A stretch of 64,000 nucleotides of DNA from an uncultured Planctomycetota bacterium (GCA_964370855.1 CAYJMF010000001.1:5905-69904); one strand, 5' to 3'. Counted from the stretch's first letter, positions 33,606-51,749 are shown. The notes: a model not told the origin generated them from the sequence alone. Numbers and translations are program-made.

Positions 33606-33671
33606 CGGCACCCCACCGTTCAGCGCCCGTCTGCTCCGATTCTCTCCTTCAGCAGCCGGAGGAACTCCCTT

Positions 33672-33733
33672 CATTGCAGCACCCACCATCATCGACGTGA
33701 TGGTTGCTCACGGGAAGGACAATCGTGATTCCC
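33672..33733 (-). promoter_or_regulatory. conserved ~62-bp cis-element, copy 2 (upstream of the TerB gene)
   Basis: cattgcagcacccaccatcatcgacgtgatggttgctcacgggaaggacaatcgtgattccc; see copy 1. Confidence 0.5.
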
Positions 33734-37000: not shown

Positions 37001-38588
37001 GTTCCGGGACCGGGCACTGAACGTCTCCTCCACGGTCCAGGACGGCATCGTCTACGACGGCACCGCCCCCACGGGGACTCTTTCCGTGGAGGACGGCGCC
37101 TTCTTCACCGGCACCTCGACGGTGGATCTCACGATCTCCGGACTCGATTCCCTCTCCGGCCTGGAGGGGATGCGGTTCCGGGGATGGGCCGCTGACAGCG
37201 ACACGTGGTCGTCCTGGGTGCCCTTCTCGACCTCCCACACCATGGTGCTGAACGCCGCACAAGGGCTCCTGACCATCGGACTCCAGGTCCGGGACTATGC
37301 CGGGAACATGTCCACGGTCGCCTCCGACGGGATCTACTTCGACGCGACCCCGCCTACCGGGACCGTCCTCCTTCTCGACGACAGGGCCGCCATCAACACC
37401 ACCGCGATCCAGGTCCAGATGTCCTGGAGCGACGTCGGTTCCAGCGTGGAGGCCTACCGCCTGCGCAACGAGGGCGGTTCCTGGACCGACTGGGCTCCTC
37501 CCACCGCCGTCCTCCCCTGGGACCTTCCTGCGGCAGACGGAGTCAAACGCGTCGAGGTCGAGTTCCGGGACCTTTGCGGACTCGTGTCCAGCACCCTCTT
37601 CGACGAGATCCTCCTGGACACCGTTCCCCCTGTGGGGTCCTTCGCCCTGAACGGCGGGGCCGGGTACCTGCTTCCCTGGGAGGCCCTCGAGGCCGTCACC
37701 ACCTCCGAGGACACCCCCGATGGATCCGGTGTCGACGGTTACCGGTACTCCACGGACGGTGGGGAGACCTGGTCCGCCTGGTCGGACCTGGCATCGGACG
37801 GCGTCCATGAGGTGACGCGCCCGGGTGCGGTCCACCAGGTTGAGGTCCTGGGGCAGTTCCGCGACGCCGCCGGGAACGAATCCGTTGCCAGCGCCGAGTC
37901 CATCTACTTCCTGAAGGGAGACCCCCAGCGGCTGACCTTCACCCCGAACATCCGCGGGACGACCGAGCCGGGGGGCGACCATGACGCGTTCACGGTGGAC
38001 CTCGGCCCCGGGGATCTCCTCGACTTGAAGGTGTCCGCCAAGAGCAGCATCAAGAAGGGGGACTTCCAGCTCCTCGTGGACGTGTACGCTCCCGACGGGA
38101 CGAAGGTCGTGGACGGCCTCTACCCCTCCAGCTCCAAGAAGGTCGGCGTGAAGAAGTTCCCGGCTCCCGTGGCGGGCCAGTACTGGGTGGTCCTGCGCCC
38201 TCTGGGGGCGGACCTCGACGCGGGCGCGTACTACACCCTGAAGTCCAAAGCCCGGATGTCGAAGACCCGTCGCGTGATCGCGGGTTCGGTGACTCCTGCC
38301 GGGGTCCCGCCGTCCGCCGTTGTCCAGATTACCGCTGCGGATCGCGAACAGCTCAGCGGCACGATCCAGATGGCGGTCCTGGAGTCGATCGAACTCCACG
38401 GGCCCAACGACTGGACCGACCCGGTGTCGTTCACGTCCAAGGGCTACAAGCGGACCCTGCCCTCCCGCACGCTCGGCTCTGGGTCGGGGACCTACGACCT
38501 CGAGCTCTTCGGCAATGGGCTGGCCTCCTACAAGTTCCTGCTGAAGCCGCCGGTCCAGGACAAGGCCTTGACGGAGGAGGAGGAGTAA
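34002..38588 (+). CDS. secreted subtilisin-like serine protease (peptidase S8) with five tandem ~93-aa Ig-like repeats and a C-terminal PPC (pre-peptidase C-terminal) domain
   Basis: Catalytic triad contexts VAVVDSGVDSGHP (Asp), HGHGTHVAGT (His), GTSMACPHVAG (Ser). Five repeats each beginning D-x-T/A-P-P-T-G. C-terminal FTPNIRGTTEPGGDHDAFTVDLGPGDLLDL...YYTLKSK is PPC-like. Arg-rich n-region plus hydrophobic core indicates a signal peptide (start 34002 or 34029). Confidence 0.8.
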   Translation: MGRQGEGIVMMRFRGASPDSSRPRWRWALRSIANCGLMVLLAASPGSSEGAEESAPSWEVYTSPLNRTPYEIHVDRKARTKTFVGPTGETFGSIEEILAAESSGLSPLQRVVAPSLWGHLQSPTPSGDLVPVTIVLRNQPAHDASQVARERHAPRLAEALGRARRILGRLEPLLPSPEVRKRMTLRQLMEAEGALLTVEEKAELKAVREEVRATLGILRSEVLAQARSQAQADKAPIVAWLAATPGCRLVGDSTILSAVFAEVPGHVIETMVETFPEIARVSPIGRAEATMNTSTGTIGASDWWNAGYNGSSSTKVAVVDSGVDSGHPALSSVVSDAAVHLAYGKLLSVFNDSSTSTDDLHGHGTHVAGTVASTDSTYRGVAYGGLVMGAKCLFRTTTGGAGGVDPDIFSAMDWATDNGADVLNLSLGGSSSNGGESDIAHFCDAVAYGLVIPVAVASGNSGSSSGTVGTPGDAYNVITVGNFDDWDTTGHSDNILSSSSSRGPTSDGRRKPDLSAPGEDIASCNNTWEGAGSDFVNNSGTSMACPHVAGSCGILLDYASSWSPEALKALLVTTPRNTSPYPTSPDNNWGYGGLNLASAYAHRASIYEGTLTKTGPEFVFLKLGSMTAGDRSTLVWNRHVTSNNASAPTVYYSLLDLDLYLYDEATDTELDYSLSGLEPVEQCSVSSTVSSPVAKVYRYDSFPSAFSTEYFAFASETTTSPTLADPPELACTFTSLPSFVAASTSFTVTVQVTNQGDIRAFSPEVTLSIPTGYTVLSGANPRTLSNLSAGASTSVSWTVQSPSSGGTATFDAEAWTISYGELFYGDTVSQAMATDSAAPTGSVALDAGAAASQDLDVTLSINATDDRSGIAEMRIRNQGDSWPAWTAFSATVARTLPEGEAERTVEVQLRDAVGNVSATLSDSIYHDLTPPTGSVVVGGGAAYTNARPTPLTLDASDGVSGVQDMRFRTDGVNWGSWIPYAASTSLDLGSVDGAKTVDCQFRDRALNVSSTVQDGIVYDGTAPTGTLSVEDGAFFTGTSTVDLTISGLDSLSGLEGMRFRGWAADSDTWSSWVPFSTSHTMVLNAAQGLLTIGLQVRDYAGNMSTVASDGIYFDATPPTGTVLLLDDRAAINTTAIQVQMSWSDVGSSVEAYRLRNEGGSWTDWAPPTAVLPWDLPAADGVKRVEVEFRDLCGLVSSTLFDEILLDTVPPVGSFALNGGAGYLLPWEALEAVTTSEDTPDGSGVDGYRYSTDGGETWSAWSDLASDGVHEVTRPGAVHQVEVLGQFRDAAGNESVASAESIYFLKGDPQRLTFTPNIRGTTEPGGDHDAFTVDLGPGDLLDLKVSAKSSIKKGDFQLLVDVYAPDGTKVVDGLYPSSSKKVGVKKFPAPVAGQYWVVLRPLGADLDAGAYYTLKSKARMSKTRRVIAGSVTPAGVPPSAVVQITAADREQLSGTIQMAVLESIELHGPNDWTDPVSFTSKGYKRTLPSRTLGSGSGTYDLELFGNGLASYKFLLKPPVQDKALTEEEE

Positions 38589-38803
38589 TCCGGAGGCTGC
38601 ACCTCTCCAGCGGTTCATCCGAGGACACCAGTCAGGAGATGGGACTGCCGGCCATGGCGAAAACCTCGCGGCCCCCTCTCGTGACGGCTCGGAGGTTGGC
38701 CCGATGGGAGCCCGACTCGGAGATGGGGCCGTCTAGAGGTATGCTCTTTGGAGTAGACGGTCCGTCGTATCGATGCCCCTGTTCGTATACGACTGAGGAA
38801 CTG

Positions 38804-39793
38804 ATGGCCACAGCTGCCCAGGTGAAGGCTCTGATCCGCACGTACGCTGAACGCGACGACGACCGGTTCTTCACGGTCGCGCTGCAAGTCGCTGCCCATG
38901 CTGCGCGGACCGGGCACACGAAGTTCGCTCAGGAGCTGAAGCAGGTCATCGAGGAGGCTCAGTCCCGGGCAAGGTCCGCACCACCCGCACCCGGCGCAAA
39001 GATCGTCTCGATCATCCAGCCCAGGGGTGAGTTGGCTGGCCTACTTACCGTCGAGTACCCGAAGCAGCGACTCGCGAGCATGGCGCTGGACGACTCAGTC
39101 CGCCAGAGGCTGGACCGAGTTCTCCTTGAACAGAGGCACCAAGGTCGCATCCGGGAGCATGGGTTTGGTCCGATGCGCAAGCTGCTCCTGGTCGGGCCAC
39201 CCGGGACCGGGAAGACGATGACCGCGGGGGTGCTCGCGGCCGAACTGGGACTCCCACTTTTCACCATCCAACTGGATGGCCTGATCACGAAGTACATGGG
39301 GGAGACAGCAGCCAAGCTGAGGTTGATCTTCGATGCGATCCGGCAGACGCGGGCGATCTACCTCTTTGACGAGTTCGATGCCATCGGAGGCAAGCGCGTG
39401 GCATCGAACGATGTCGGCGAGATCCGCCGTGTGCTCAATTCGTTCCTTCAGTTCCTGGAGCAGGACACCTCCGAGAGTCTTATTCTCGGAGCAACGAACC
39501 ACCCTGAACTTCTAGATCGCGCCCTGTTCCGACGATTTGACTCAGTCATCGAGTACGACCTCCCTTCACCCATAGTTGCCCAATCGGTGATGAAGGCACG
39601 GCTCTCCCTGCTCGACACCTCGGAGATCGACTGGAGAGCGTCTGTTGGTGGCGCGAAGGGACTCAGTCACTCAGACGTGGCACGCGCCTGTGAGAGCGCC
39701 GCCAAGGACGCCATCCTTGCACACAAACTGAAGATCGAGACGGACGCGCTCCTTCGAGCGCTGAACGACCGAAGGGCTGTTCAAGGCAGGTAG
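38804..39793 (+). CDS. ietA: AAA+ ATPase (IetA-like)
   Basis: ATG 38804 with GAGGAA SD. Walker A GPPGTGKT, Walker B YLFDEFD, sensor-1 GATNHPELLD. 18-nt gap to the downstream S8 peptidase gene. Confidence 0.8.
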   Translation: MATAAQVKALIRTYAERDDDRFFTVALQVAAHAARTGHTKFAQELKQVIEEAQSRARSAPPAPGAKIVSIIQPRGELAGLLTVEYPKQRLASMALDDSVRQRLDRVLLEQRHQGRIREHGFGPMRKLLLVGPPGTGKTMTAGVLAAELGLPLFTIQLDGLITKYMGETAAKLRLIFDAIRQTRAIYLFDEFDAIGGKRVASNDVGEIRRVLNSFLQFLEQDTSESLILGATNHPELLDRALFRRFDSVIEYDLPSPIVAQSVMKARLSLLDTSEIDWRASVGGAKGLSHSDVARACESAAKDAILAHKLKIETDALLRALNDRRAVQGR

Positions 39794-39811
39794 TGCCCAG
39801 GAGGGGAGCGC

Positions 39812-42331
39812 GTGCCGGCTCCGCGGGATCGTCGCCACATCGTGCTTCCGGGGCAACCACAGACTGAGCCCTACAAGCCTTGGCCCAGGGGCGGCAGCAG
39901 CCCGCTCCCACCGCTGCCTCCCCACCTACGACGCAGGCATGCGACCCGGCTGAAGGCCGAAGTCGAGCAGGCCAAGGAAGACGCTGACCTTCGACGGAAG
40001 GCAGCGGTGCAAGCCGGCTTCGAGCGAACCGTCAACGCGATCACTCTGGCGTTCGTGAGCCCTCCGGGGTTCGACCTAGAACTTGGTTCACTTGAGAGTC
40101 AGCGGAAAGGCATCGAGCTCCTGTCCGTACAGGCAGAGCAGCGGGCGGACGGCGACCTCTCTCAGCGCGCGGTGGTGAGGGTTCCGGATGAAGAGGTGGG
40201 CTTCTTCCTCAAGCGATTTGAGGCATTCGCAACCGAGAAGACCAAGGAGAAGGGCAACCCGAAGCACCAGCAGATGGTGCAGCGTATCGCCGCGGTTCGG
40301 CTCGCCACACTCAGGGAACTATGGACTGACTCAGCCCCTTACCCCGCCGACGGAGCGGTCGTCTGGTGGGAGATCTGGCTTCGAAGGCGGGACGGCATGG
40401 AAGAAGGTCGACTTGCGTCCTTCGCGGAGACTGCAGGAGTCGCGCTTGGTGCGAGCAGGCTCGGTTTCGAAGATCGGACTGTAGTACTGGCGCGAGCCAC
40501 GCCTGAGCAACTCGCTGCCTCGGTTGATGTCTTGGGTGACATCGCGGAGGCCCGTCTGGCCAAGGAGTCACCGAGTTTCTTCGAAGAACTCCCCCCTACA
40601 GAGCAAGCCGAGTGGACAGCGGATCTCCTTCAGCGCATGTCCGCCCCCAGAGCGGACGCCCCTTCGGTGTGCGTGCTCGATACGGGCGTGCACCGCGGAC
40701 ATCCCCTCCTTCAGGGTGCGACCGCGGCCACCGACGTCCAATCATGTGATGTCGCTTGGGGCGTTGATGATCACCACGGTCACGGGACTGAGATGGCAGG
40801 GCTTGCACTTCTGGGTGACCTGGGCCCCCATCTTGCGGGTGGCGCCGCTGTCCCCGTGAACCACCGACTGGAGTCAGTGAAGATCCTGCCCCCGGTCGGA
40901 CTCGCCCCTACTCCCCCCGAACTCTATGGCGCTCGCACGGCTCAAGCGAGCAGTCTCGTGGAGATTCAGGCACCGGCTCGATCGCGCGCCTTTCTGATGG
41001 CAGTGTGCTGCCAAGACACTCGAGACCGAGGGTTACCGACGTCATGGTCGGCGGCAGTGGATGCATTGGCATCCGGCAGGACTTTTGATCCCTCAACTCA
41101 GGGCCTTGTGTACATAGATGCTCACGCTCCGGCAGACGGGCGGCTCTTCGTCCTTGCTGCAGGGAATGTTGATGACCTCGCACTCGAGCACCTGGACCGA
41201 AGCGACCTGGAGGTCGTACACGACCCCGGGCAAGCCTGGAATGCGCTGACGGTCGGAGCGTTCACGGAGCGCGGTGTAATTCAAGATCCGGGATACGAAG
41301 ACTGGCGCCCAGTCTCAGCACCGGGAGGCCTCTCTCCCTACAGCGCGACGTCAATCTCGTTTGGTAGCCAGTGGCCCTTGAAACCGGATGTTGTGTTTGA
41401 AGGCGGCAACGTCGGACATAACGGAGCCGGGCAGTTCCAGGCAGGTCTCCCGTCTCTGTCGCTCCTCACAACCTACCGGCGGCCAGCGGTCGGACACTTC
41501 GTCTCATCCTGGGCCACCAGTGCGGCGGCAGCCCAAGCTGCCAGAATGGCCGCACGCATTCGCCATCAGTATCAGGAACTCTGGCCAGAGACTGTCCGAG
41601 CGCTTATCGCGAATTCTGCACGCTGGACTCCGCAGATGAGGGCTCTATTGGGCAGTTCCGCAACTGCTCGTGCCAAGGAGAACCTCGTCCGGAGATTTGG
41701 TCTCGGGGTTCCAGACGAGAGCCGGGCTATGTACAGCGCTCGAGATGCGCTGACCCTGGTCTCGCAGTCAGTCATCAGGCCATTCGAGGATGGTGCCCTG
41801 CGCGAGCTTCACTTCCATGCCCTTCCGTGGCCCAGAGAGGAGCTCGCCCATCTCGGTGAGATGCCCGTCTCGCTGAGGGTCACCCTCTCCTACTTCGTTG
41901 AGCCGAACCCTGGAAGGCGAGGGTGGAAGTTGCGCCACAGTTACGCTTCGCATGGATTGAGATTTGAGGTGAAGGGAGCATTTGAAGAGGTCGACCACTT
42001 TCGTGCTCGCCTGAATCGGTTGGCTGTCGAAGAGGAGACTGAGCGCCCCACGACAGAGGACTCCGGAGACGGGTGGTTTCTAGGCCGGACCCTTCGCACC
42101 CGCGGATCGCTGCACTCCGATGTCTGGCAGGGGACAGCGGCGGATCTGGCCGAGCGGGGGCAAGTCGCGGTTTTTCCCGTGTCTGGTTGGTGGAAGGCGC
42201 AACAGAAGCGAGATCGCAGCGAGATCGGCGCCAGGTATGCGTTGATCGTGACGATCGAGTCTCCTAGTGTCGATGTCGACATCTGGACTCCGGTAGCCCA
42301 ACTCGTGGGCGTTCCTGTGACATCGCATTAG
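39812..42331 (+). CDS. ietS: intracellular subtilase-family S8 peptidase (IetS-like)
   Basis: SVCVLDTGVHRGHP (Asp), DDHHGHGTEMAGLA (His), SWATSAAAAQAARMAA (Ser). No signal peptide. Paired with the upstream AAA ATPase as in the described ietAS defence pair. Confidence 0.8.
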   Translation: MPAPRDRRHIVLPGQPQTEPYKPWPRGGSSPLPPLPPHLRRRHATRLKAEVEQAKEDADLRRKAAVQAGFERTVNAITLAFVSPPGFDLELGSLESQRKGIELLSVQAEQRADGDLSQRAVVRVPDEEVGFFLKRFEAFATEKTKEKGNPKHQQMVQRIAAVRLATLRELWTDSAPYPADGAVVWWEIWLRRRDGMEEGRLASFAETAGVALGASRLGFEDRTVVLARATPEQLAASVDVLGDIAEARLAKESPSFFEELPPTEQAEWTADLLQRMSAPRADAPSVCVLDTGVHRGHPLLQGATAATDVQSCDVAWGVDDHHGHGTEMAGLALLGDLGPHLAGGAAVPVNHRLESVKILPPVGLAPTPPELYGARTAQASSLVEIQAPARSRAFLMAVCCQDTRDRGLPTSWSAAVDALASGRTFDPSTQGLVYIDAHAPADGRLFVLAAGNVDDLALEHLDRSDLEVVHDPGQAWNALTVGAFTERGVIQDPGYEDWRPVSAPGGLSPYSATSISFGSQWPLKPDVVFEGGNVGHNGAGQFQAGLPSLSLLTTYRRPAVGHFVSSWATSAAAAQAARMAARIRHQYQELWPETVRALIANSARWTPQMRALLGSSATARAKENLVRRFGLGVPDESRAMYSARDALTLVSQSVIRPFEDGALRELHFHALPWPREELAHLGEMPVSLRVTLSYFVEPNPGRRGWKLRHSYASHGLRFEVKGAFEEVDHFRARLNRLAVEEETERPTTEDSGDGWFLGRTLRTRGSLHSDVWQGTAADLAERGQVAVFPVSGWWKAQQKRDRSEIGARYALIVTIESPSVDVDIWTPVAQLVGVPVTSH

Positions 42332-42508: not shown

Positions 42509-43144
42509 ATGGCACGAGTGGTCGGGCGACCTGGGAGCGTCACAGCCCTCGAGGCCGATGTTGACGCAAGGCGGCAAGAGGCGGTCGGTTGCCTTGGAGT
42601 GTTCGGCCGTGTCCTCAGCGCCGTCCTGGGTCAGAGTCGAATCGAGACCCGATCACGGGGCATGCTTCGGGCTGGCGCGTATGGGGAGACTCGTGTGGCC
42701 GAGGAGCTAGAGCTCCTCCCGGACTCCTACTGGGTCATCCACGATGTCCGCCTCCGGTCGACAAGCCCTATGAAGTTCGATGGCAAGGGGCTCTTCACAG
42801 CCCAGGTGGACCACCTCGTCGTGGGCCCCACGGGGGTGTTCGTGATCGAGGCGAAGTGCTGGTCCACGGACCTGGCGTCCGCCGACTTGCCCTTCAGCCC
42901 TTTCGACCAGGTTCGACGGGCCGGCTACCTGTGCTACAGGCTCCTGAAGGAGAATGTGGGAGAGACCAAGGTCCAGCAGATCATCGTCTCCGTCGGGGCG
43001 CCTCTCAGGAGGGTCAACGACCACCACGTCCAACTCGTTTGGCCTAACGGGTTGGTGCGCTGGATCGTGGGTGGCAGGGATAGGCTCCCTTCAGTTCGGG
43101 TAGACGCCATTGCGAACTATCTGGCGGGACTGGTCGGCACCTGA
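42509..43144 (+). CDS. NERD (nuclease-related domain) protein
   Basis: GETRVAEELELLPDSYWVIHDVRL...DHLVVGPTGVFVIEAKCWS matches the NERD core. Confidence 0.75.
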   Translation: MARVVGRPGSVTALEADVDARRQEAVGCLGVFGRVLSAVLGQSRIETRSRGMLRAGAYGETRVAEELELLPDSYWVIHDVRLRSTSPMKFDGKGLFTAQVDHLVVGPTGVFVIEAKCWSTDLASADLPFSPFDQVRRAGYLCYRLLKENVGETKVQQIIVSVGAPLRRVNDHHVQLVWPNGLVRWIVGGRDRLPSVRVDAIANYLAGLVGT

Positions 43145-43319
43145 GTCCTCGCCCGGAGTGGCGACCACCGAGATTACAGACTCTCTGGGAACGAGGACTA
43201 GCCAGGCCTCCTGCGACGGACGAGCACAGAGAAGCAGCCATCCCCCATTGAGGCGACTGGCCTCGGTGTGGCATGCTCAACGAACAGCGCACTCTCCCGT
43301 GCGCAACCGAGGGAATTCC

Positions 43320-44084
43320 ATGAGCGTACTCGTGATCCCGTCCTTCATCAGAAGCCGCTGGGATCGGAAGTGCCTTGATCGCCTGTTGCAGAGCGTCCGC
43401 GAGCAGTCCGTTCCCTTCGACCGTGTGTACGTCGTGGACGATGCGAGCCCCGCGGAGTGGGAGGTCGATCCCGGTCTCGCGGAGCGCATCCGCCTCGACA
43501 AGAACGGCGGGCCCGCCATGGCCCGGAACGTCGGGATCGACCGCGCACTCGCCGATGGCGCTGAGCATGTCCTCTTCACGGACCACGACTGTGTTCTCGA
43601 CCGGGCCTGGAACGAGCACATGGTCCGTTTCCTCGAGATGACGACGTTCGGAGCCGTCGGCGGGATGACCTACGCCCTCGGATCGACGCTGCTCGACCAC
43701 TACCACGACCTGAACGGAACCCTGAACGGCAAGTGGCTCCTCCCGGGCCGAAAGGAGCTCTGGTACATGCCGTCCCTCAACTTCGGCATGAAGGCCGAAG
43801 TGGCGAGGGACTTCACGTTCGACGAGCGGTTCCCCACGGCCGCGGGCGAGGACGTCGACATCTGCCTGCGCATCCGGAGCAAACACCGGATCGGGTTCTG
43901 CCCCGGCGCCAGGCTGTGGCACGACTTCGGCTACCGCTCCACCCTAACGGGACTCCCGCGGTTCGTCCGGCTGTTCATGAAGTACAAGAGCTCCAGCGCG
44001 ACGCTTTACGACGGGCACACGGTCCTGCTCTGGGACTCGTCGGAGTCCATCTATGAGGGGAATGCACATGAGCCTCATCTATAG
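43320..44084 (+). CDS. family-2 glycosyltransferase
   Basis: ATG 43320 with GAGGGA SD. GT-A motifs VYVVDDASP and TDHDCV (DxD). 255 aa. Confidence 0.75.
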   Translation: MSVLVIPSFIRSRWDRKCLDRLLQSVREQSVPFDRVYVVDDASPAEWEVDPGLAERIRLDKNGGPAMARNVGIDRALADGAEHVLFTDHDCVLDRAWNEHMVRFLEMTTFGAVGGMTYALGSTLLDHYHDLNGTLNGKWLLPGRKELWYMPSLNFGMKAEVARDFTFDERFPTAAGEDVDICLRIRSKHRIGFCPGARLWHDFGYRSTLTGLPRFVRLFMKYKSSSATLYDGHTVLLWDSSESIYEGNAHEPHL

Positions 44085-45087
44085 GAAGCGCGCGAATGCC
44101 CCGAGCCTCACGCACTGGATGTACGACTACTACGGGGAGTTGAAGCCGTTCGCCCGCCGCATCGACCGGAAGATGGCGGTGCTCCCGCTCGTGTTCCTGA
44201 AGTCGCTCGAGTGGGCGATCTACCGGTGGTACCGGACCCCGATCCGGCGTTTCTACGGCGTGAAGGGCAACGAGCTGATCTACATGATCACGCGCCGGTG
44301 CGGCGAGCGCTGCCCCAAGTGCAACATCCCGGCGAACCCCGAGTTGAACCCCGATCACCTCGCTTTGGACCACTTTCTCGAGTGCCTGCGCCGGCTCCAC
44401 GAGAACCTCTACCAGGTGACGCTCACGGGTGGCGAGCCGATGATCTTCCGCGAGGATCTCCTTCGCATCGCCGAGGAGGCCCGGATGCTCGGGGTCCCCA
44501 TGGTCGTAGTGACCGCCGGAGCCCTGCTGACGGAGCCGTTCCTCCGCCGGTACGGGGAGCTGCGCCATGTGCTCGTCATCTCGCTCGACACCGTCGATCC
44601 GGCGAAGTGGAAGGCCTTCCGGGGACGCGATCACTACGAGCGGGTCATGCACAACGTCGCCCTCGCCCGGGAGGTCCTGGGCGACCGCCTTCGGGTCCAG
44701 TCGGTCCTCGCCCGGGAGAGCGAGCACGATATCGCTGGCGTTGCCGCGTTCTGCCGGGAACGCGGGATCCGCCACTCGATCCAGCCCTACATGGACTTCG
44801 GCGGCACATGGCACGGCGTCGACGGGTTGAAGGTCGGCGACGAGCCGTGCGCGGCGCGGAAGAACATCTGCATCTACCCGAACGGGGACGTCGTCAAGTG
44901 CTTCGACCACCGGCGCATCCCGATTGCCCGGGATCCCCTCGGCAACATCGGGCGCGAGGACATCATCGAGATCCTGTGCCGTAGGCGCGCGACCGAGGTG
45001 TCACGCGTGATGAAGACATGCAACCTCCCCTGCAAGCAGATGTCCTGCAACAAGCCCGCCGTCCTCCTCGATGAGGTGCCGGCGTGA
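44062..45087 (+). CDS. radical SAM protein with N-terminal extension (possible RRE) and C-terminal Cys-rich SPASM/twitch-like region
   Basis: CxxxCxxC at CGERCPKC about 95 aa from the start. Seven C-terminal Cys (CAARKNICIYPNGDVVKC...LC...TCNLPCKQMSC). Overlaps the GT2 stop. Start 44062 or 44068. Confidence 0.7.
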   Translation: MHMSLIYRKRANAPSLTHWMYDYYGELKPFARRIDRKMAVLPLVFLKSLEWAIYRWYRTPIRRFYGVKGNELIYMITRRCGERCPKCNIPANPELNPDHLALDHFLECLRRLHENLYQVTLTGGEPMIFREDLLRIAEEARMLGVPMVVVTAGALLTEPFLRRYGELRHVLVISLDTVDPAKWKAFRGRDHYERVMHNVALAREVLGDRLRVQSVLARESEHDIAGVAAFCRERGIRHSIQPYMDFGGTWHGVDGLKVGDEPCAARKNICIYPNGDVVKCFDHRRIPIARDPLGNIGREDIIEILCRRRATEVSRVMKTCNLPCKQMSCNKPAVLLDEVPA

Positions 45088-45641
45088 CGCCTCCCGACCT
45101 CATCGTGATCCGAGGGGCGCCGGGCTCCGGAAAGAGCGAGGCCGCGAAGTGCCTGGCGGCGCGTCTCGGCCGTGGCGCACGGGTGGAAGTCGACACGCTG
45201 CGGGCGATGATCGTCTCCGTGGACTGGACAGACCAGCGGGAGCACATCGCCGTGCTTTCGCTTTCCGTGAGCATGGTCGCCGGCTTCCTTCGGCTGGGAC
45301 ACCGCCCCGTGATCGTGGTGGACACCTTCAGCGGGGACAAGTTGGGGAGGTTCCTGGATGACGTCGGAGCCGCACACCCTGGAGCATCGGTGCGCCCGTT
45401 CTCGCTTGCCCCGAGCAAGTCGGCGCTCCGAGCCCGGGTCGAGGCCAGACCGGAGGGTGGCTACAAGGACCTCCGCGTCTGCGAGAAGCTGAATGCAGAT
45501 GTCGCCCGCCGGCTCGTTCCTGGAGAAACGCTCATCGACAACTCCTCGCTCACGCCGGAGGAGTCCGTGGATGTGATCATGAGGGCTTGCCAGATTTCCA
45601 CTCACCTCACTCCCGCCGCAGCGCCCCCTCCGGGAGCTTGA
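45084..45641 (+). CDS. P-loop kinase-like NTPase (AAA_33-like)
   Basis: Walker A GAPGSGKSE near the N-terminus. 185 aa. Start overlaps the radical SAM stop (GTGA). Confidence 0.65.
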   Translation: MTPPDLIVIRGAPGSGKSEAAKCLAARLGRGARVEVDTLRAMIVSVDWTDQREHIAVLSLSVSMVAGFLRLGHRPVIVVDTFSGDKLGRFLDDVGAAHPGASVRPFSLAPSKSALRARVEARPEGGYKDLRVCEKLNADVARRLVPGETLIDNSSLTPEESVDVIMRACQISTHLTPAAAPPPGA

Positions 45642-45936
45642 GCTCCCGCCCGTCGGCGGGGGCGGTGTAGGTACCGAGGTCGGTGCGACCACGCCCGGCG
45701 TTCCAGAAGAGGACGACGGGGCCCGGTGGCAGGCCGCTGAGCCGGAAGGTGCCGTCCTCCGTCGAGGTCTCCACTCCCATGTAGTGCTCCCCTCCCACCT
45801 CGCCCCCGAACCAGGTGCTGAGTGCGGGTTTCCCCTCGGATGTCAGAAGACGGCCGGTGACCTCGAAGCCTTCCTTCACCGTGAGACGGACATTCGATCG
45901 GACGAGGTGGACCGTTCCATGGTCTCCACGGATGAG
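45607..45936 (-). pseudogene. orphan CarboxypepD_reg-like domain fragment (possible remnant)
   Basis: Translation ...GTVHLVRSNVRLTVKEGFEVTGRLL...GTFRLSGLPPGPVVLFWNAGRGRTDLGTY resembles the C-terminal repeat of the 1014-aa protein at 60931-63975 (GKFRLGGLAEGRVRISVFLEGGERDLGEF). No ATG; only an internal GTG. Confidence 0.3.
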
Positions 45937-46040
45937 TCACCGGCCGGGGCCCGGTCGTTTCAGGGTATCCGGGAGAGCATCCAGAGGCGGCCTGGGTGCG
46001 GGAAGGACCGGTGGCGTCGGGATCGGGGGCCGACGGCTCC

Positions 46041-49000
46041 TTACGGGCTGAGGTTCCCGGGGAACAGCTTCCCGTCCTTCTCCACCATGCGCCCGCTCCT
46101 CTGAAGCCTGTCGAGCGTCATGGAGAGACGCCCTCGGATCTCATCACCCGTGCGGGCGAAGCCGAACTCGCGTGAGGTGGCAACGATCGCGTCGCCGGGC
46201 GTTATTCCGTAGGACCTCGCTACGACTGCCTCCAGGCCCGCCGCCAGCTCGACGAAGGAGATCTCGTGGATTCGGGTCCTGCCCCCCGACGAGTCTGTCC
46301 CCCTCGGGCGAGCCGACTTGGCTCCGGGCAGGCAGAAGAACTCCCTCTCCCCGTGGTCCCCGCCGATGGAGTCGTCCAGGTAGACGAACAGCCCGTTCCG
46401 CACAGCCGTCTTCTGGATTTGGCGAAGGCGATCCTCGATCACCCGGCCGATTCGGCCGCATCGATAGAGAGCGCGGAGCCGCTTCCACACGACCTGTTCA
46501 TGTACGGGCTGCTCGACCTTGACCACCTCCGCGATCTTCGAGGCGATCTCATTGTCGCTGGCGGAACTGATGTCATGGCGGGGGATGTTTTTGAAGAGGA
46601 TCCGTTGATAGGGGTCGAAAGCCGAATCCGAAGCGGCCACCTGGACCGTCTCCCTGTACTTCTCGGACGCATCGTCGCCGGACTTCGGTTCGAAGGACGG
46701 CACCGTTGCGGACCGCACCTGTCGAGCCCTCTCAAGCGCCTCCTCCACCCTGGCCACTTCGCGGGCCGGATCCAGAATCCACGACCTCGACCAGATGCGG
46801 TGGATGGTCCATCCCAGCCCCTCCAGGACACTCTGACGCTGCCAGTCCCGGTCGCGGGCGCTGGGGGAGGAGTGGTAGGTCGCACCGTCGCATTCGATCC
46901 CGAGGTCGAACCCCGAACCGTCCTCCGCCTCCACGGCCAGGTCGATGAAGTACCCGTTGCACCCCACCTGGCAGAACACCTTGTGCCCCCGCGAGACGAG
47001 GGCCCTGTAGACGGCCTCCTCGAACTCGCTCTCGGGTGCGTCGGTCGTGGGCCGCACTTCCCCGGCCTCGAGCGCCCCCGCCGGTGATGCTACATACTCC
47101 AGGTACCGCCGGAGGAGCCGAGGGCCCTGCATCTCGGAGGTGATGTCCTGCGGACGGAGGGAGTGAACGACGGTGAGGCTCATCCGGGCGCGGCTCACGG
47201 CGACATTCAGGCGCCGGTGTCCGCCATCGTGGCTCAGGGGACCGAACCGGTTGGGGACCGCGTCGGAGCCCACGGTGGGTCCGTAGCCGATGTCGAGGAT
47301 GATGTGATCCCGCTCGTCCCCCTGGACATTCTCCAGGTTCTTGACGAAGAACCGCTCATGGCGGTCCTCCGCGAACCGGTCGTCGAGCGCGCGCTCCACG
47401 AGTCGTCGCTCGTTCACGAGGCGTTCGATGAGGTCGGCCTGGGCCCTCGACAAAGCGACCACGCCGATGCTCTCCTTGGGGGGGCGGTCTCTCATGAGTT
47501 CGAAGACCTTGTCGACCACGGCCTCCGCCTCACCTGGGTTGGTTCGAGTGCCCCCTGCGTCGTAGCGCGCGTCTGGCAGGTACACGTCCCGGAGTCCCAG
47601 GTCCGGACGCCCGGGGGAAGCCGTTGGGAATACGAGCAGCCGGCCATCGTAGAAGTAGCGGTTCGAGTACCGGATCAGGTCCTCGTGTCGGCTCCGGTAG
47701 TGGACCATGAGGGAGTGCTCCTCGACGGCAAGCCCCTTCAGACCCACCATTGCATCGAGGATGCTCTCGCGTCCCACGGTCAGGCTCTCCGGGGTCACAT
47801 CGGCTTCCTCGAGCGGAGCATCGTCCTCATCGGCACCCTCACTCCTGAAGAAGTGGGTCGGGGGCAGTTGATGTTCGTCCCCCACGACGACGGCCTGATC
47901 GGCCCGAGATAGCGCGGGAATGGCATCCCAGGGAAAGACCTGCGAAGCCTCGTCGAAGATCACCGTATCGAAGGCGGGCCCCGTTTCCGTCACGGCACAG
48001 CGCGGGAGGAACTGGCTCACGGCCAGCGGGCTCATGAGGAAGCAGGGCTTGAGGGACTGGATGACATTGGGGATCTCCTCCATGAGCCACCGGACCGGGC
48101 GCTGCCTTCGCTTCTTCGTGAGCTCGGTCTGGAGCTGTCCCAGTTCCCCGAGGCCGCGCGTGGGAAGCCCCTGGTCGGGGTACTTGCCGAAGCACCGCTC
48201 CCGAACCCGCTCCCGGTTCGCAAGAACGAAGGCGCGGTCCAGGTCCTTGAAACTGCGGCGGCGCGCGTCAAGGTCCGGCGCCGTCGTGCGCAACTCCGTC
48301 GTCGTGGCGTAGGCGTGATCGAGCCAGGCCTCGTACACCCTTCGAAGAACGACTCCAGGAACTTCGTCCGCGTTGTCGGTGGCCTGCCACACTCCATCCA
48401 CCACCCCGTCCTCCAGGAAGGCGTGAACCTCCTCCACGGCCTGCAGGTAGTCCAGCCAGGCATGGGCGGACTCGGGGGCTTCCAGGATCTCCTCAGACCA
48501 GGCCTTGCCCGTCTCGAATCGGAATGTCTCCGCATCAGGGCAGGGAGTCTCCTGGAGGCTGAAAATCAGACCGGCCGCTGCATGCGCCTCGGCCAGCTTC
48601 GCGACAAGGCCCTTCAACCGGGCGGCAGGCTTCCGGTAGTCCTCCCCCTGTTGGGGGTGTTCCAGGTGGCACTTCAAGACATCGCTGGTGATGTCGGGGA
48701 GCGCCTCCCCATGACCGCCCATCCACTGTGCGGCAGGTCCCAGCGAGGCCCAGTCACCGGTCTCCGGGAGGAACTCCTCCGGAACTTCGGCAAACAGGGT
48801 CCTCCAGATGTCGTCCAGAGTCCTCCGGCACTCGTCCCGGTTCTGAACGGCTCTCAACGCCCCCCTCAGCGACTCCAACGATGGAACCGCGTCGGACAGG
48901 CATCCACTCAGCCGGGACCGCGCACCGGCCAGGATCTCTGCCACGGCCCTCACTGCCGTCAGGGCCTCCAGGATGTCGCTCACATGTGTGGCAGGATCGA

Positions 49001-51749
49001 TGGCGCCCCTGCTGACTCCCTCCAGGTAGGCGACTCCGGTCGGGAGAGCCCCCGGATCCTCCGAGGGGGCGCACTCCCTCCACAACATGTCCGTGGTTTG
49101 CCGCAGGGCCCTCATCCTCTCCAGGACCGTGGCTCTCGCCTCCCCAAGCTCCTTCTTCGCTTCCTTGGAACACAGGAGGGAGGGGAGCGTGTCTCCGGAC
49201 AGCCGCTCCTCCACGAGGAGAGAAGGCACCTGCCCGAGGAGCCCGGTCAGGACCTCCCAGTCTCCGACCGAAGCATCAAAGACGCCGGCCGTGGCCATTG
49301 ACAAGGCATGCATCTGCTCCTTCAGCTCGGCGCGCTTCTCCTTGACCTGCATGACCCGGTTCAGGACGGAGAGAATGTCCTCCCGCACCAGCTTTCCAGA
49401 CGAAGTCCTGTTGCCGGCCACGGTCCGCCAGTCGCGCCGGTACTGCATCGAGAACAGGCGGCGCCAGAAGGACTGGTAGTCCACCTTGAAGCGGAGGAGC
49501 ATGTCCTCGTCTACGGCATCCACGAGCCGTAGCGAGTAGTCGCTGGCCAGGTCCATCTCCGCGGCGGTGAGTTCCCTCCGGAGGACCCCGGCCCTCTCGG
49601 CTAGGACCTCGATCCTGCGGACACCCTCCACGGTGCTCCACACGGCAGGAAGCACGGGCAGTCTCCCCAGCGCGAGGCTGGTGTCGAGCGCCCATGGGAC
49701 ATCATCCAGTGAGTCCGGAGTCGGCCGCGCCATCAGGAGGGAGTGGAGGGCATTCGCCCCGGCGAGGAGCCCCCGAAACGAGGACTCGACGGCGGCGATG
49801 TGTCGCGCAACCAGTTCATTCCGTTCCAGGAGAAGGCGGTCCCAGTCGGCCCCCAGAAGTACTCGGCACGCCCTGCCCTTGGACTCGTCGATGTTGAGCA
49901 GGGTGAGGATGTCGGGAATGGACTCCAGTGCGGGGGAGTGGGTGAACACGACGGCAATCTCCCCGTCAAGTCTCCGAACCTCCTCCACCTTCGGCAGGGC
50001 CCTTCCGTACAGGTCCCGGAACTTCCTCCGGCGCGATGGAGAGCACCAGGCGGAGGGGACGCCGGGACATGTGGCCATGGCATCGAGAATCGGGACCAGC
50101 CGCGAAGCCTCTCCGGCGCACCGGGGCCGTTCCGTCCCCAGCCACCGCCCTGTCGCCTCCGACTCCCGGTCGAGTTCCTCGATGGCCCCGCCGAGGGCAT
50201 TCGCAACGTCACGGATGTCCGTGGTCAGGCGAAGCGTGCTCGACCGGGCCTTAAGGGCCCTCCACCGGCTGGTGCCGTGTTCCGAGTACTCGCGCTGACG
50301 ACGCTGGATCCTCGCGAGGGCGCCGTCAATCTGCGAGAGACGCTCTCCTGTGAGGCCCCCGACACCGGTCACAGAGAAGTCCACCACGGGATAGTCATGG
50401 ACCAGGCTGAACCTGCCCTGAACCTGGAACACGGTGAGCCCCAGTGGCTCCCGAACCCGATGAAGTTCCCTGGTCAGGGTGTTGAGCTGGGTCCGTATCT
50501 TCTCCAGCTTCTCGAAGGGCACCCCCTTTGCCCGGGTCCGGGATTCATCGAGCGCATCCCGGAGTTGTCCGTAAACGGACGCCTTGCGTCCTCTCTCGCT
50601 GTGAAGGTCCAGGCAGAAGACTCCCAGGTCGCACTCCTCTAGTCGCCGCTTCACCACATCCAGGGCGGCGGTCTTCTCGCTTACGAAGAGGACCCTCTTC
50701 CCGTCGGCGAGCAACCCCGCGATGATGTTGGCGATGGTCTGGGACTTTCCCGTTCCCGGAGGCCCGTGAATCACCATGTGGGAGCCGGCCCTTGCACGCT
50801 CGATGGAGATCAACTGGCTGAAGTCGGCCTCCATCACCGTGTGTTCGTTCTTCACGCCGATCAGGTCATCCAGCCTCCCCCCCGTGAGCTCCGCGACGGG
50901 GGGGAACGGGGAGGCGTGCTTCTCACTCTCGTCCCTGAGGCTTCCGATGTCTCCGGCGAGGCACCGAACGAGGGGATGGTCCACCCCCTGCTTGCGCATC
51001 GCGTCCAGGTCCTCCCAGATGGCCATCTTCGAGAAGGCGAAAGTGGCGAGGTAGACATCCTCCCGGACCACCCAGTCCGGCTTCCCTCGGATGGCCTCCC
51101 GGACCCGATCGAGGTACTGGGATGGAGACTCCTGCCCAAGGTCGGGGATCTCCACTCCCAGCGCCCCGACCTTCTGGCGCAGGGTGGAGTTGTGGACGGG
51201 ATCGTCCCCCTCCTTCAGGAGGAGGAAGGGATCCCGGGGAGACTCCCGCAGAAGGTCGCAGGGGCAGAGGAACAACGGCGCGATGGCCCGGGTCCCCTCG
51301 TCGTCGATCCACTGGAGGGTCCCGACCGCCAGGAACAGGACGTTGAGGCCCTGCTCCTCCATCCACTCGCGCTCCCTCTTCCGGAGAGCGGAGAGCCGCT
51401 TCTGGAGCTCACGGGGGTCGCCATCGGTGTCGAGATCCCCTTCGATGACGAAGTAGTCAGGCTCGGACTCGTCATCAGCACTGCTCTCGGGTGCGAAGAG
51501 GTTCCTCTCGTCCCGCCTCCCCCGGGGCTGAACATGGTCGAAGGACAGCCCCTTCTCGGAGTCCTCCAGGTTCTGGTAGAGGTCGTCCACGTCCTCGGTA
51601 AGGATGCGGACGGAGGAGCGGCTAGCCTTGAAGTAGAGGAGGCCGTTGCGGCGATCGAGCTGGAGGACGCGCGCCTGCCACTCCGCGATCCGCGTCTTCA
51701 GGTCGGACCTGGAGGATGCCCTGTCGCCGTTGGGTCCCATCGCCTTCAC
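46041..51749 (-). CDS. 1902-aa DUF4011 / Upf1-DNA2-like SF1 helicase with C-terminal REase-like (DUF559) and DUF3320-like domains
   Basis: Walker A HGPPGTGKSQT and Walker B VIFDEASQ. SF1 C-terminal motifs (VVGDEHQLPP, YRSRHEDLI, LNVAVSRAR). A Vsr/DUF559-like endonuclease fold (FCQVGCNGYFIDLAVEAEDGSGFDLGIECDGATYHSSPSARDRDWQRQSVLEGLGWTIHRIWS) and a long C-terminal tail. Confidence 0.85.
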   Translation of the reverse strand: MKAMGPNGDRASSRSDLKTRIAEWQARVLQLDRRNGLLYFKASRSSVRILTEDVDDLYQNLEDSEKGLSFDHVQPRGRRDERNLFAPESSADDESEPDYFVIEGDLDTDGDPRELQKRLSALRKREREWMEEQGLNVLFLAVGTLQWIDDEGTRAIAPLFLCPCDLLRESPRDPFLLLKEGDDPVHNSTLRQKVGALGVEIPDLGQESPSQYLDRVREAIRGKPDWVVREDVYLATFAFSKMAIWEDLDAMRKQGVDHPLVRCLAGDIGSLRDESEKHASPFPPVAELTGGRLDDLIGVKNEHTVMEADFSQLISIERARAGSHMVIHGPPGTGKSQTIANIIAGLLADGKRVLFVSEKTAALDVVKRRLEECDLGVFCLDLHSERGRKASVYGQLRDALDESRTRAKGVPFEKLEKIRTQLNTLTRELHRVREPLGLTVFQVQGRFSLVHDYPVVDFSVTGVGGLTGERLSQIDGALARIQRRQREYSEHGTSRWRALKARSSTLRLTTDIRDVANALGGAIEELDRESEATGRWLGTERPRCAGEASRLVPILDAMATCPGVPSAWCSPSRRRKFRDLYGRALPKVEEVRRLDGEIAVVFTHSPALESIPDILTLLNIDESKGRACRVLLGADWDRLLLERNELVARHIAAVESSFRGLLAGANALHSLLMARPTPDSLDDVPWALDTSLALGRLPVLPAVWSTVEGVRRIEVLAERAGVLRRELTAAEMDLASDYSLRLVDAVDEDMLLRFKVDYQSFWRRLFSMQYRRDWRTVAGNRTSSGKLVREDILSVLNRVMQVKEKRAELKEQMHALSMATAGVFDASVGDWEVLTGLLGQVPSLLVEERLSGDTLPSLLCSKEAKKELGEARATVLERMRALRQTTDMLWRECAPSEDPGALPTGVAYLEGVSRGAIDPATHVSDILEALTAVRAVAEILAGARSRLSGCLSDAVPSLESLRGALRAVQNRDECRRTLDDIWRTLFAEVPEEFLPETGDWASLGPAAQWMGGHGEALPDITSDVLKCHLEHPQQGEDYRKPAARLKGLVAKLAEAHAAAGLIFSLQETPCPDAETFRFETGKAWSEEILEAPESAHAWLDYLQAVEEVHAFLEDGVVDGVWQATDNADEVPGVVLRRVYEAWLDHAYATTTELRTTAPDLDARRRSFKDLDRAFVLANRERVRERCFGKYPDQGLPTRGLGELGQLQTELTKKRRQRPVRWLMEEIPNVIQSLKPCFLMSPLAVSQFLPRCAVTETGPAFDTVIFDEASQVFPWDAIPALSRADQAVVVGDEHQLPPTHFFRSEGADEDDAPLEEADVTPESLTVGRESILDAMVGLKGLAVEEHSLMVHYRSRHEDLIRYSNRYFYDGRLLVFPTASPGRPDLGLRDVYLPDARYDAGGTRTNPGEAEAVVDKVFELMRDRPPKESIGVVALSRAQADLIERLVNERRLVERALDDRFAEDRHERFFVKNLENVQGDERDHIILDIGYGPTVGSDAVPNRFGPLSHDGGHRRLNVAVSRARMSLTVVHSLRPQDITSEMQGPRLLRRYLEYVASPAGALEAGEVRPTTDAPESEFEEAVYRALVSRGHKVFCQVGCNGYFIDLAVEAEDGSGFDLGIECDGATYHSSPSARDRDWQRQSVLEGLGWTIHRIWSRSWILDPAREVARVEEALERARQVRSATVPSFEPKSGDDASEKYRETVQVAASDSAFDPYQRILFKNIPRHDISSASDNEIASKIAEVVKVEQPVHEQVVWKRLRALYRCGRIGRVIEDRLRQIQKTAVRNGLFVYLDDSIGGDHGEREFFCLPGAKSARPRGTDSSGGRTRIHEISFVELAAGLEAVVARSYGITPGDAIVATSREFGFARTGDEIRGRLSMTLDRLQRSGRMVEKDGKLFPGNLSP

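Follow-up and report, generated by a model that had tools for sequence, protein, structure and literature searches.

A 64,000-nt stretch of DNA from an uncultured Planctomycetota bacterium (GCA_964370855.1 CAYJMF010000001.1:5905-69904), which we call the window and from whose first letter all coordinates are counted, carries at 43320-45641 one copy of an autonomous, horizontally spread cassette of three genes. They encode a glycosyltransferase (GT) of family 2 (GT2), an enzyme of the radical S-adenosylmethionine (SAM) superfamily, and a small P-loop kinase. The cassette is probably a new variant of the radical SAM chemical conflict systems, and our findings suggest that its chemistry is cytoplasmic and based on UDP-xylose. 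It is real, strongly conserved, and undescribed, since we found no account of a GT2, radical SAM, and kinase trio in the papers searched. Its spread between archaea and several bacterial phyla is accompanied by unusually high sequence conservation.

A preliminary description of positions 42509-45641 had read this region as a NERD gene followed by an operon of GT2, radical SAM, and P-loop kinase genes. Pfam scores bear out this gene content, and all four genes lie on the plus strand. The GT gene (43320..44084, 254 aa) matches PF00535 with 49.8 bits against a cut-off of 23.3, the radical SAM gene (44068..45087, 339 aa) matches PF04055 with 58.5 bits against 29.5, and the kinase gene (45084..45641, 185 aa), which begins with GTG, matches AAA_33 with 37.3 bits against 27. 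Alignments of homologues fix the true starts of the first two genes: all GT homologues begin with MS.LIIP, which places the GT start at ATG 43320, and the N-terminus MSLIY, kept in all 27 aligned sequences, places that of the radical SAM gene at ATG 44068. TTG 43110 was rejected as a GT start, as the first 70 codons of the resulting long open reading frame (ORF) have no counterpart in the homologues. The genes had been described as overlapping stop to start through GTGA, which holds for the radical SAM/kinase junction (45084-45087) but not for the GT/radical SAM junction, a 17-nt overlap running from ATG 44068 to TAG 44084. Through these overlaps, the three genes are translationally coupled. 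No hydrophobic segment was found in the GT, radical SAM, or kinase protein, and all three are soluble.

Conservation of the trio was assessed by scanning the radical SAM protein against 185,579 genomes, one per species, which gave 67 loci in about 60 genomes. A metagenome scan returned 167 further loci, 80 of which were kept and added, leaving 134 nonredundant loci after removal of duplicates. A GT gene lies directly upstream of the radical SAM gene in all 110 loci with sufficient flank, and a kinase gene lies downstream of it in all 124 loci with sufficient flank. The kinase match begins more than 120 nt downstream in only five of these 124; four are real inserts of about 600 nt, and the fifth (L018) is a scoring artefact caused by a spurious radical SAM match, the kinase being directly adjacent there. 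Across the loci, the GT and radical SAM genes overlap by 4, 17, or 23 nt and the radical SAM and kinase genes by 1 or 4 nt. Such a constant order with overlaps goes far beyond what chance would give. Compared with the window proteins, homologues have a median identity of 67% for the GT, 60% for the radical SAM enzyme, and 46% for the kinase, and among all pairs of radical SAM proteins, the median is 67% and the minimum 51%. Clustering of the flanking ORFs, in 60 and then in 134 loci, revealed no universal fourth gene; the only optional extras were UDP-xylose synthase, UDP-sugar dehydrogenase, and methyltransferase genes, and the flanking genes were otherwise unrelated between loci. We therefore consider it very likely that the cassette is autonomous.

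The hosts include Bacteroidota, Planctomycetota (mostly Phycisphaerales), Verrucomicrobiota, Myxococcota (Anaeromyxobacter oryzae), Magnetospirillum, Desulfovibrionaceae, one cyanobacterial genome bin, and several Methanoperedens-type archaea. In a group of loci assigned mostly to Bacteroidota, a conserved 63-mer immediately precedes the GT start. It includes a TAATTTG box, which we take to match the Bacteroidota -7 promoter element; in the Bacteroidota loci, the transcription unit therefore starts at the GT gene. By inference, the 175-nt spacer that precedes the GT gene in the window (43145..43319, plus strand) is probably the start of the cassette's own transcription unit, and a promoter and terminator scan of the window detected no sigma-70-like site and nothing else of use. 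Direct repeats of about 150-290 nt, 84-97% identical, bracket the cassette in two loci (L010:6832-6984 and 10199-10351; L036:995-1280 and 3864-4148), those in L036 covering a duplicated ORF of about 122 aa. These repeats suggest insertion or recombination at repeated sites and, together with the conserved upstream 63-mer, lead us to regard the cassette as a self-contained mobile transcription unit. Seven loci were scanned with Rfam for RNAs linked to the cassette, which yielded unrelated tRNAs only. The cassette family is absent from the 72,556 plasmid records of PLSDB and the 50,697 phage records of INPHARED, and one of the 2.9 million contigs in IMG/VR carries it.

Several individual loci are worth recording. 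The promoter-like 63-mers at L041:100-163 and L043:5313-5375 are 98% identical, although one contig is binned as Bacteroidetes and the other as Dolichospermum, which reflects either a very recent transfer or a binning error. The archaeal genome LFW-24 holds two divergent cassettes (L009 and L031), one of them with a methyltransferase gene, and in one Bacteroidetes genome bin, two contigs (L021 and L022) carry identical copies with identical flanks. There are cultured carriers: Magnetospirillum molischianum DSM 120, in which the trio is intact (L050), and Anaeromyxobacter oryzae Red232, in whose complete genome the GT is split into pieces of 207 aa and 41 aa (L001/L006:7259-8004). At L039:5784-8001, the GT is truncated and lies about 1.8 kb away from the radical SAM gene. 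The Red232 and L039 copies may be decaying.

The GT belongs to GT2 (GT-A fold, inverting) by its Pfam score, its DxD motif, and its fold. The DxD motif FTDHDC is encoded at 43575-43592 and the motif AAGEDVD at 43839-43871; residues D88-H-D90 and E177-D178 are invariant, and homologues are 60-85% identical to the window protein. The predicted model has a GT-A fold (predicted template modelling score 0.79), and Foldseek matches it to GT-A enzymes at E values of about 1e-11. The top match is AvpGT, a nucleoside 3'-O-glucosyltransferase (PMC11959488), with GalNAc-T, TarP, and TarS likewise at about 1e-11. These fold matches are equally strong, and a search of Protein Data Bank (PDB) sequences with the GT gave only 20-23 bits, so we rejected a function assigned by homology. 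The closest curated family is MftF (TIGR03965) at 77.7 bits, followed by the next family at 35.5. We did not accept the GT as an MftF, because 77.7 bits is far below the equivalog cut-off of 280 and mftA-E were not found; indeed, no mft genes were found in any locus inspected.

The C-terminal tail of the GT (residues 215-254; 43962-44081) is among the most conserved parts of the protein, with 24 of the 34 positions from 215 to 248 invariant in 30 sequences, yet AlphaFold models these positions with a predicted local distance difference test (pLDDT) score of only 27-33. Normally, the Tyr-Arg codons at the beginning of the overlapping radical SAM gene supply the GT stop. This stop has been lost in L036, L053-L059, L061, L063, and L067 (loci of Planctomycetota, plus one of Deltaproteobacteria), so that the GT frame there extends into the radical SAM gene for 206-296 nt. 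The overlap may be genuinely that long, or high-G+C DNA may simply leave an alternative frame open.

The radical SAM enzyme is assigned to its superfamily by the Pfam score, by the motif CX3CX2C (C78/C82/C85; 44299-44322), which is invariant in our alignment, and by a barrel that AlphaFold models at pLDDT 85-97. The motif had been placed about 95 residues from the N-terminus, but it starts at residue 78. The cysteines invariant in the family are 78, 82, 85, 229, 261, 268, 278, 318, 322, and 327. The seven-Cys region noticed earlier downstream of the motif does exist, with seven cysteines between residues 261 and 327 of the window protein, but C304 is not conserved; the invariant ones in this interval are C261, C268, C278, C318, C322, and C327, and C229 outside it is invariant as well. 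This C-terminal Cys region (44848-45048) resembles a twitch or SPASM domain, and the SPASM model PF13186 scores 20.9 bits, just below its cut-off of 21.5. C261-x11-G-x4-C278 fits the first half of the SPASM motif (CX9-15GX4C), whereas the second half is C318-x3-C322-x4-C327 (CX3CX4C) and not the canonical CX2CX5CX3C. When a sister clade of radical SAM proteins, 31-35% identical to the window protein, is included in the alignment, the C-terminal invariants shrink to C261, C278, C318, and C322, which makes one (twitch-like) auxiliary cluster as likely as two. About 67 highly conserved residues precede the first core strand as an N-terminal extension, for which AlphaFold predicts a hairpin of two helices (residues 14-31 and 35-54; 44107-44229), a feature absent from the sister clade. 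This hairpin and the conserved GT tail might contact each other.

Searches with the radical SAM protein returned generic matches. NCBIfam models, StsB, TIGR04053, MoaA, PqqE, NirJ, and viperin among them, scored 22-56 bits against cut-offs of 131-650; profile searches of PDB sequences gave SuiB 43, MoaA 41, viperin-like 34, BlsE 28, and PqqE 26 bits; and Foldseek ranked SuiB, MoaA, viperin, BlsE (E value 1.6e-9), and SkfB together. As all of these are of similar strength, we rejected a function assigned by homology here too. Against 1.84 billion representative proteins, the radical SAM profile defines an isolated family, with a single full-length representative at 650 bits, a divergent member at 360 bits that likewise sits within a GT-radical SAM-kinase trio, the sister clade at 160-196 bits, and, from 130 bits downward, generic radical SAM proteins. 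We are thus dealing with a radical SAM family that has no characterized member, possesses a private N-terminal hairpin, and is locked to a GT2 and a kinase. The preliminary description had named two findings that would overturn it, a housekeeping radical SAM family and a trio not conserved together. Neither was encountered: the NCBIfam scores all stay far below their cut-offs, and the trio is strictly kept. The fallback idea of that description, a defence-island trio doing something other than peptide maturation, survives, and the UDP-xylose link described below sharpens it.

The kinase falls within the AAA_33/PNK/CPT/PSTK group of P-loop kinases. It has a Walker A motif GAPGSGKS (45114-45137), an EVDxxR motif (45186-45203), and a lid RxxxR (45435-45449), and its invariant residues are G11, K17, D37, R40, D80, R118, and R122. 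The best solved relative is BH3686 (45 bits), followed by PSTK, a TmrB-like resistance protein, and Pnkp1; BH3686 is a structural-genomics protein without known function, and no function could be taken from it. A Zeta toxin (UDP-GlcNAc kinase) assignment was also rejected, as PF06414 scored 21.3 bits against a cut-off of 22.3 and covered only the P-loop region, residues 4-43.

A candidate sugar donor came from the optional neighbours. In 15 loci, a short-chain dehydrogenase/reductase (SDR) gene overlaps the GT start, typically by 4 nt, and since radical SAM identity among these loci goes down to 60%, several lineages are involved. Upstream of the SDR gene, 10 of the 15 have a UDP-glucose/GDP-mannose dehydrogenase-family gene, and the archaeal L017 additionally has a sugar-phosphate nucleotidyltransferase. 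The best solved match of the SDRs is human UDP-glucuronate decarboxylase (UXS1), at 310 and 195 bits, with the next matches at 100 and 109, and by sequence, they are UDP-xylose synthases. Independent support comes from the sister clade. In every locus examined, a second radical SAM/SPASM gene adjoins; a GT2 gene is present wherever the contig is long enough, one of its products being 36% identical to the window GT; and on the longest contigs, a predicted UDP-xylose synthase comes next (320 bits against 121). On these sequence grounds, namely the coupling to UDP-xylose synthases and the sister clade, UDP-xylose or a closely derived compound is the probable donor of the GT, and we infer a xyloside as the target of the GT2-radical SAM pair. 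A Methyltransf_24 gene forms another optional component: at least four complete loci have it inserted after the radical SAM gene and before the kinase gene, and in one case it is fused to the N-terminus of the GT. The genes upstream of the five-gene variants showed no Pfam domains and no polysaccharide-cluster context.

The window copy probably lies within a large acquired island. G+C content is 0.72-0.75 at the window ends (1-5 kb and 61-64 kb) and mostly 0.57-0.69 between them, with local peaks of up to 0.76 at about 16-18 kb. The proposed defence-island context holds on both sides of the trio. Directly upstream of the NERD gene, at 38639-42331 (plus strand), PADLOC identified the established two-gene defence system IetAS, composed of IetA (AAA ATPase, 235 bits) and the S8 subtilase IetS. 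Convergent with the kinase gene is that of a 1902-aa helicase-nuclease with DUF4011, AAA_11, AAA_12, MTES_1575 nuclease, and DUF3320 domains (46041-51749, minus strand), which scores 1172 bits for PDC-S37 and 494 bits for Hhe in PADLOC. Farther away lie, all on the minus strand, a gene for a protein with DUF4041 and T5orf172/MUG113 (GIY-YIG-like) domains (19704-22217), an IS1595-family transposase gene (22991-24025), a DEAD-box helicase gene (26421-28976), and, after the helicase gene, that of a 1227-aa TerB_N/TerB/TerB_C protein (30009-33692); TerB-containing defence systems have recently been validated (Dionysus). The DUF4041 protein and the transposase point further to a defence or mobile island, and the window also carries a Ymh-family gene. 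Two further observations were made in passing. A 1528-aa ORF at 34002-38588 (plus strand), as read by eye from its translation, has a signal-like N-terminus, the subtilase motifs DSGVD...HGTHVAG...SGTSMA, and, in its C-terminal half, several similar repeats of about 100 residues. Antisense ORFs of 90-112 aa (45602-45940, minus strand) lie between the Hhe gene and the end of the kinase gene, where L079, a 23.5-kb metagenome contig nearly identical to the window, has a 57-aa gene call.

The NERD gene itself (42509..43144, plus strand; 211 aa; PF08378, 60.9 bits) had been taken as part of the operon, which the wider comparison does not sustain. By tblastn, no NERD gene adjoins the trio in any of the first 67 loci, of which L044 has an unrelated NERD-like match about 3 kb downstream. 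As NERD and trio recur together only in the near-identical contig L079, the NERD gene is a lineage-specific neighbour in the defence island and not a member of the cassette, and in annotation, it should be kept apart from the trio. Pfam annotation was available in precomputed form for eight distinct loci (the window lineage, Anaeromyxobacter, Lacibacter, Methanoperedens, L080, L082, L083, and the window-like L079). All eight have defence or mobile-element genes within 10 kb of the trio, including type IIG restriction-modification with SNF2/PLD helicases, AbiEii, AbiJ, TIR, HEPN-NTase, ScoMcrA-type HNH, integrases, recombinases, and transposases.

Based on these observations, we tentatively propose, at somewhat less than even probability for the chain as a whole, that the trio forms a cytoplasmic pathway to a radical-tailored, phosphorylated xyloside that serves in chemical defence. 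The GT would move xylose from UDP-xylose to a cytoplasmic acceptor, and some cassettes would supply their own UDP-sugar 6-dehydrogenase and UDP-xylose synthase. We favour a small cytoplasmic molecule as the acceptor, possibly a base or a nucleoside-like compound, though the odds that the acceptor is a small molecule are slightly short of even. The radical SAM enzyme would then take a hydrogen from the xyloside, leading to a rearrangement, deoxygenation, or cross-link, and the kinase would phosphorylate a hydroxyl to create either a leaving group for the radical step or a nucleotide-like phosphate ester. Where present, the methyltransferase would decorate the product. The product may act against phages or mobile elements, as a chemical defence resembling that of the viperin product and without a dedicated sensor or effector protein. 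A conflict role in general appears nearly as probable as not, and the chemical-defence reading draws on the precedent of radical SAM defence in viperins and Ophion. More speculatively, a pentose placed on a base-like acceptor, radically remodelled, and phosphorylated could be a nucleotide mimic, assembled de novo, that poisons phage polymerases and works in bacteria and archaea alike. We regard this version as unlikely; if true, unrelated enzymes would have arrived at a viperin-like outcome, and the radical SAM reaction on the xyloside would be a new one. In any event, the cassette offers a compact three-enzyme route to a proposed phosphorylated pentoside, small enough for in vitro reconstitution.

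Several considerations weigh against this proposal. None of the three proteins has a homologue of known function, and enzymes acting on peptides, sugars, and nucleotides are matched equally well by fold. Peptide maturases (StsB and SuiB) are the best curated matches of the radical SAM enzyme, and MftF, the nearest family to the GT, belongs to the pathway of a peptide-derived cofactor. The UDP-xylose genes are missing from most loci, the window included, so the donor is deduced from a minority of them. With respect to defence, the evidence is that of the neighbourhood only, and the 114 nearest neighbours include many housekeeping genes (IlvD, arabinose isomerase). PADLOC-DB v2.0 has no model for the trio: the GT has no match in it, the kinase has weak P-loop matches, and the radical SAM protein has partial matches to prokaryotic viperins (pVips). 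Finally, the lack of a sensor or regulator would imply constitutive making of a possibly toxic compound.

The alternative that survives best, although we consider it unlikely, is modification of a protein or peptide without a classical leader. The GT would O-xylosylate Ser, Thr, or Tyr, the radical SAM enzyme would cross-link or epimerize, and the kinase would phosphorylate the xylose or a Ser; the target might be the GT's own invariant tail (KYKSSSATLY...WDSSESIY). Xylosyltransferase and xylose kinase in animal proteoglycans, and the self-modifying borosin enzymes, are analogues of such a scheme. The top curated or solved matches of the radical SAM enzyme are peptide maturases (StsB, SuiB, CteB, and SkfB), the GT fold also matches peptide GalNAc-transferases, and the tail is conserved despite a pLDDT of around 30, while the equally conserved radical SAM hairpin could dock it. 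The tail, however, is rich in hydrophobic and aromatic residues and joins a predicted helix without a linker, its low pLDDT may merely reflect a shallow alignment (30 similar sequences), and the extreme C-terminus of the GT varies in length. In addition, the cassette encodes no protease or exporter, and the sister clade keeps the GT2 and the radical SAM enzyme although its tail aligns only weakly.

The cassette might instead be niche metabolic cargo without a defence role, making, for example, a xylose-containing solute, cofactor, or signalling molecule, with the islands simply being where cargo lands. A set of nothing but three enzyme genes, lacking sensor and effector, accompanied by sugar-nucleotide genes and often next to housekeeping genes, would suit such a role, as would the closest GT family, which serves a cofactor, and the optional methyltransferase, which parallels MftM (PMC7491314, PMC9679996). 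We nonetheless think it rather improbable, given that defence or mobile-element genes lie close to the trio in every annotated locus, that the hosts (anaerobic archaea, freshwater Bacteroidota, Planctomycetota, and Myxococcota) share no obvious physiology, and that no transporter or regulator co-travels.

Hypermodification of nucleic acids is slightly less probable again. Here, bases or ends of DNA or RNA would be modified for self-marking, or for repair or alteration of tRNA, with the NERD protein as a local nuclease partner. The motifs of the kinase and their spacing resemble those of T4 Pnk, Pnkp1, and PSTK; invariant basic residues are numerous in both the GT and the radical SAM enzyme; and the window offers a defence-island setting with an adjoining NERD gene. 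But that gene is lineage-specific, the trio has no conserved companion with a nuclease, reader, or DNA-binding domain, and the phage records lack the family, which turned up in a single IMG/VR contig. Moreover, we know of no nucleic-acid precedent for the UDP-xylose link.

Tailoring of a surface glycan, in which xylosylation and phosphorylation of a polysaccharide or glycolipid would mask phage receptors, seems very unlikely. A GT2 gene together with UDP-sugar dehydrogenase and UDP-xylose synthase genes is typical of polysaccharide loci, and the GT fold matches TarP, TarS, and RmlT. Yet there is no transmembrane segment, flippase, polymerase, or lipid-carrier enzyme, the loci lie outside polysaccharide clusters, and near-identical enzymes occur in archaea and in several bacterial phyla with unrelated envelopes.

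The preliminary description had compared the radical SAM protein with maturases acting on ribosomally synthesized, post-translationally modified peptides (RiPPs), calling its N-terminal extension the size of a RiPP recognition element (RRE). As an RRE, we would have accepted a PqqD-like domain, fused or adjacent, in which some 85-100 residues form a winged helix with a sheet of three strands. The extension is too short and consists of two predicted helices with no winged helix and no beta-sheet, and a Pfam scan of the window proteins at E<=0.01 found no PqqD/RRE domain. That no precursor peptide is visible nearby had been noticed before, and the wider search agrees: flank clustering found no conserved small protein adjoining the cassette, and in about 60 loci, all-frame small ORFs of 12-90 aa lying no more than 500 nt from the cassette on either side yielded no peptide family, the only clusters being translated promoter-like or repeat DNA that is itself conserved. 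The cassette genes come with neither a protease nor an exporter. An RRE-containing RiPP maturase acting on a precursor encoded nearby or elsewhere is thus extremely improbable: the SPASM-like Cys-rich C-terminal domain and the best family matches, to sactipeptide, streptide, and PQQ-type maturases, speak for it, whereas the two-helix extension without a PqqD match, the lack of a conserved small ORF and of a protease or transporter, the motif CX3CX4C in place of CX2CX5CX3C, and the implausibility of a mobile cassette that depends on a precursor encoded elsewhere speak against it. The radical SAM gene should not be labelled a RiPP maturase in annotation.

Among known systems, mycofactocin resembles the trio in combining a radical SAM/SPASM enzyme (MftC), a GT2 (MftF), and a methyltransferase (MftM) (PMC7491314, PMC9679996). 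The trio differs in that its radical SAM protein scores only 26 bits against the MftC cut-off of 265, its GT falls far short of the MftF cut-off, it has no MftA, MftB (RRE), MftD, or MftE, it includes a kinase, and its distribution is sporadic and crosses domains. The cytosylglucuronate decarboxylase BlsE and the gentamicin pathway share a logic with our proposal, namely that a sugar derived from UDP-uronate or UDP-xylose is attached, a radical SAM enzyme changes it, and phosphorylation activates the compound. BlsE is among the radical SAM matches, but no better than peptide- or nucleotide-acting enzymes. The xylosyltransfer, radical SAM, and kinase enzymes of gentamicin belong to other families, and unlike the antibiotic pathways, the cassette has three genes and lies outside any large biosynthetic cluster. 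Initiation of animal proteoglycans, by the xylosyltransferases XYLT1/2 and then the xylose kinase FAM20B, likewise consists of a UDP-xylose transferase followed by a kinase acting on its product. These enzymes come from unrelated families, include no radical SAM step, and are extracellular or in the Golgi, so the likeness is a functional analogy only.

Closer in setting are the pVips, which like the trio are radical SAM enzymes in defence islands, sometimes with a P-loop (nucleotide) kinase, and which like the role we propose provide a modified small molecule without a sensor or effector. They are also the only PADLOC defence models that the radical SAM protein touches (53 and 46 bits, in the core only). 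We did not accept it as a pVip, as NF038283 gives 46.3 bits against a cut-off of 180 and covers only residues 77-198, and the protein has a Cys-rich C-terminal domain where a pVip should carry an NTP-binding extension devoid of an auxiliary cluster. To our knowledge, viperins lack both this Fe-S domain and the N-terminal hairpin. In contrast to the pVips, the radical SAM enzyme of the trio is always coupled to a GT2 and is linked to UDP-xylose and not to NTPs. Ophion, a validated anti-jumbo-phage system composed of the radical SAM protein OpnA, the PHP protein OpnB, and the PRTase OpnC (bioRxiv 10.1101/2025.09.30.679545), is again a purely enzymatic three-gene set in which a non-viperin radical SAM enzyme accompanies sugar- and nucleotide-handling enzymes. 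The comparison is one of gene content, with the trio known from sequence alone, and the partners differ: a PHP protein and a PRTase in Ophion, a GT2 and a kinase in the trio. Should the trio prove to serve in defence or conflict, it would represent a third radical SAM chemical strategy after viperins and Ophion and the first to be tied to UDP-xylose.

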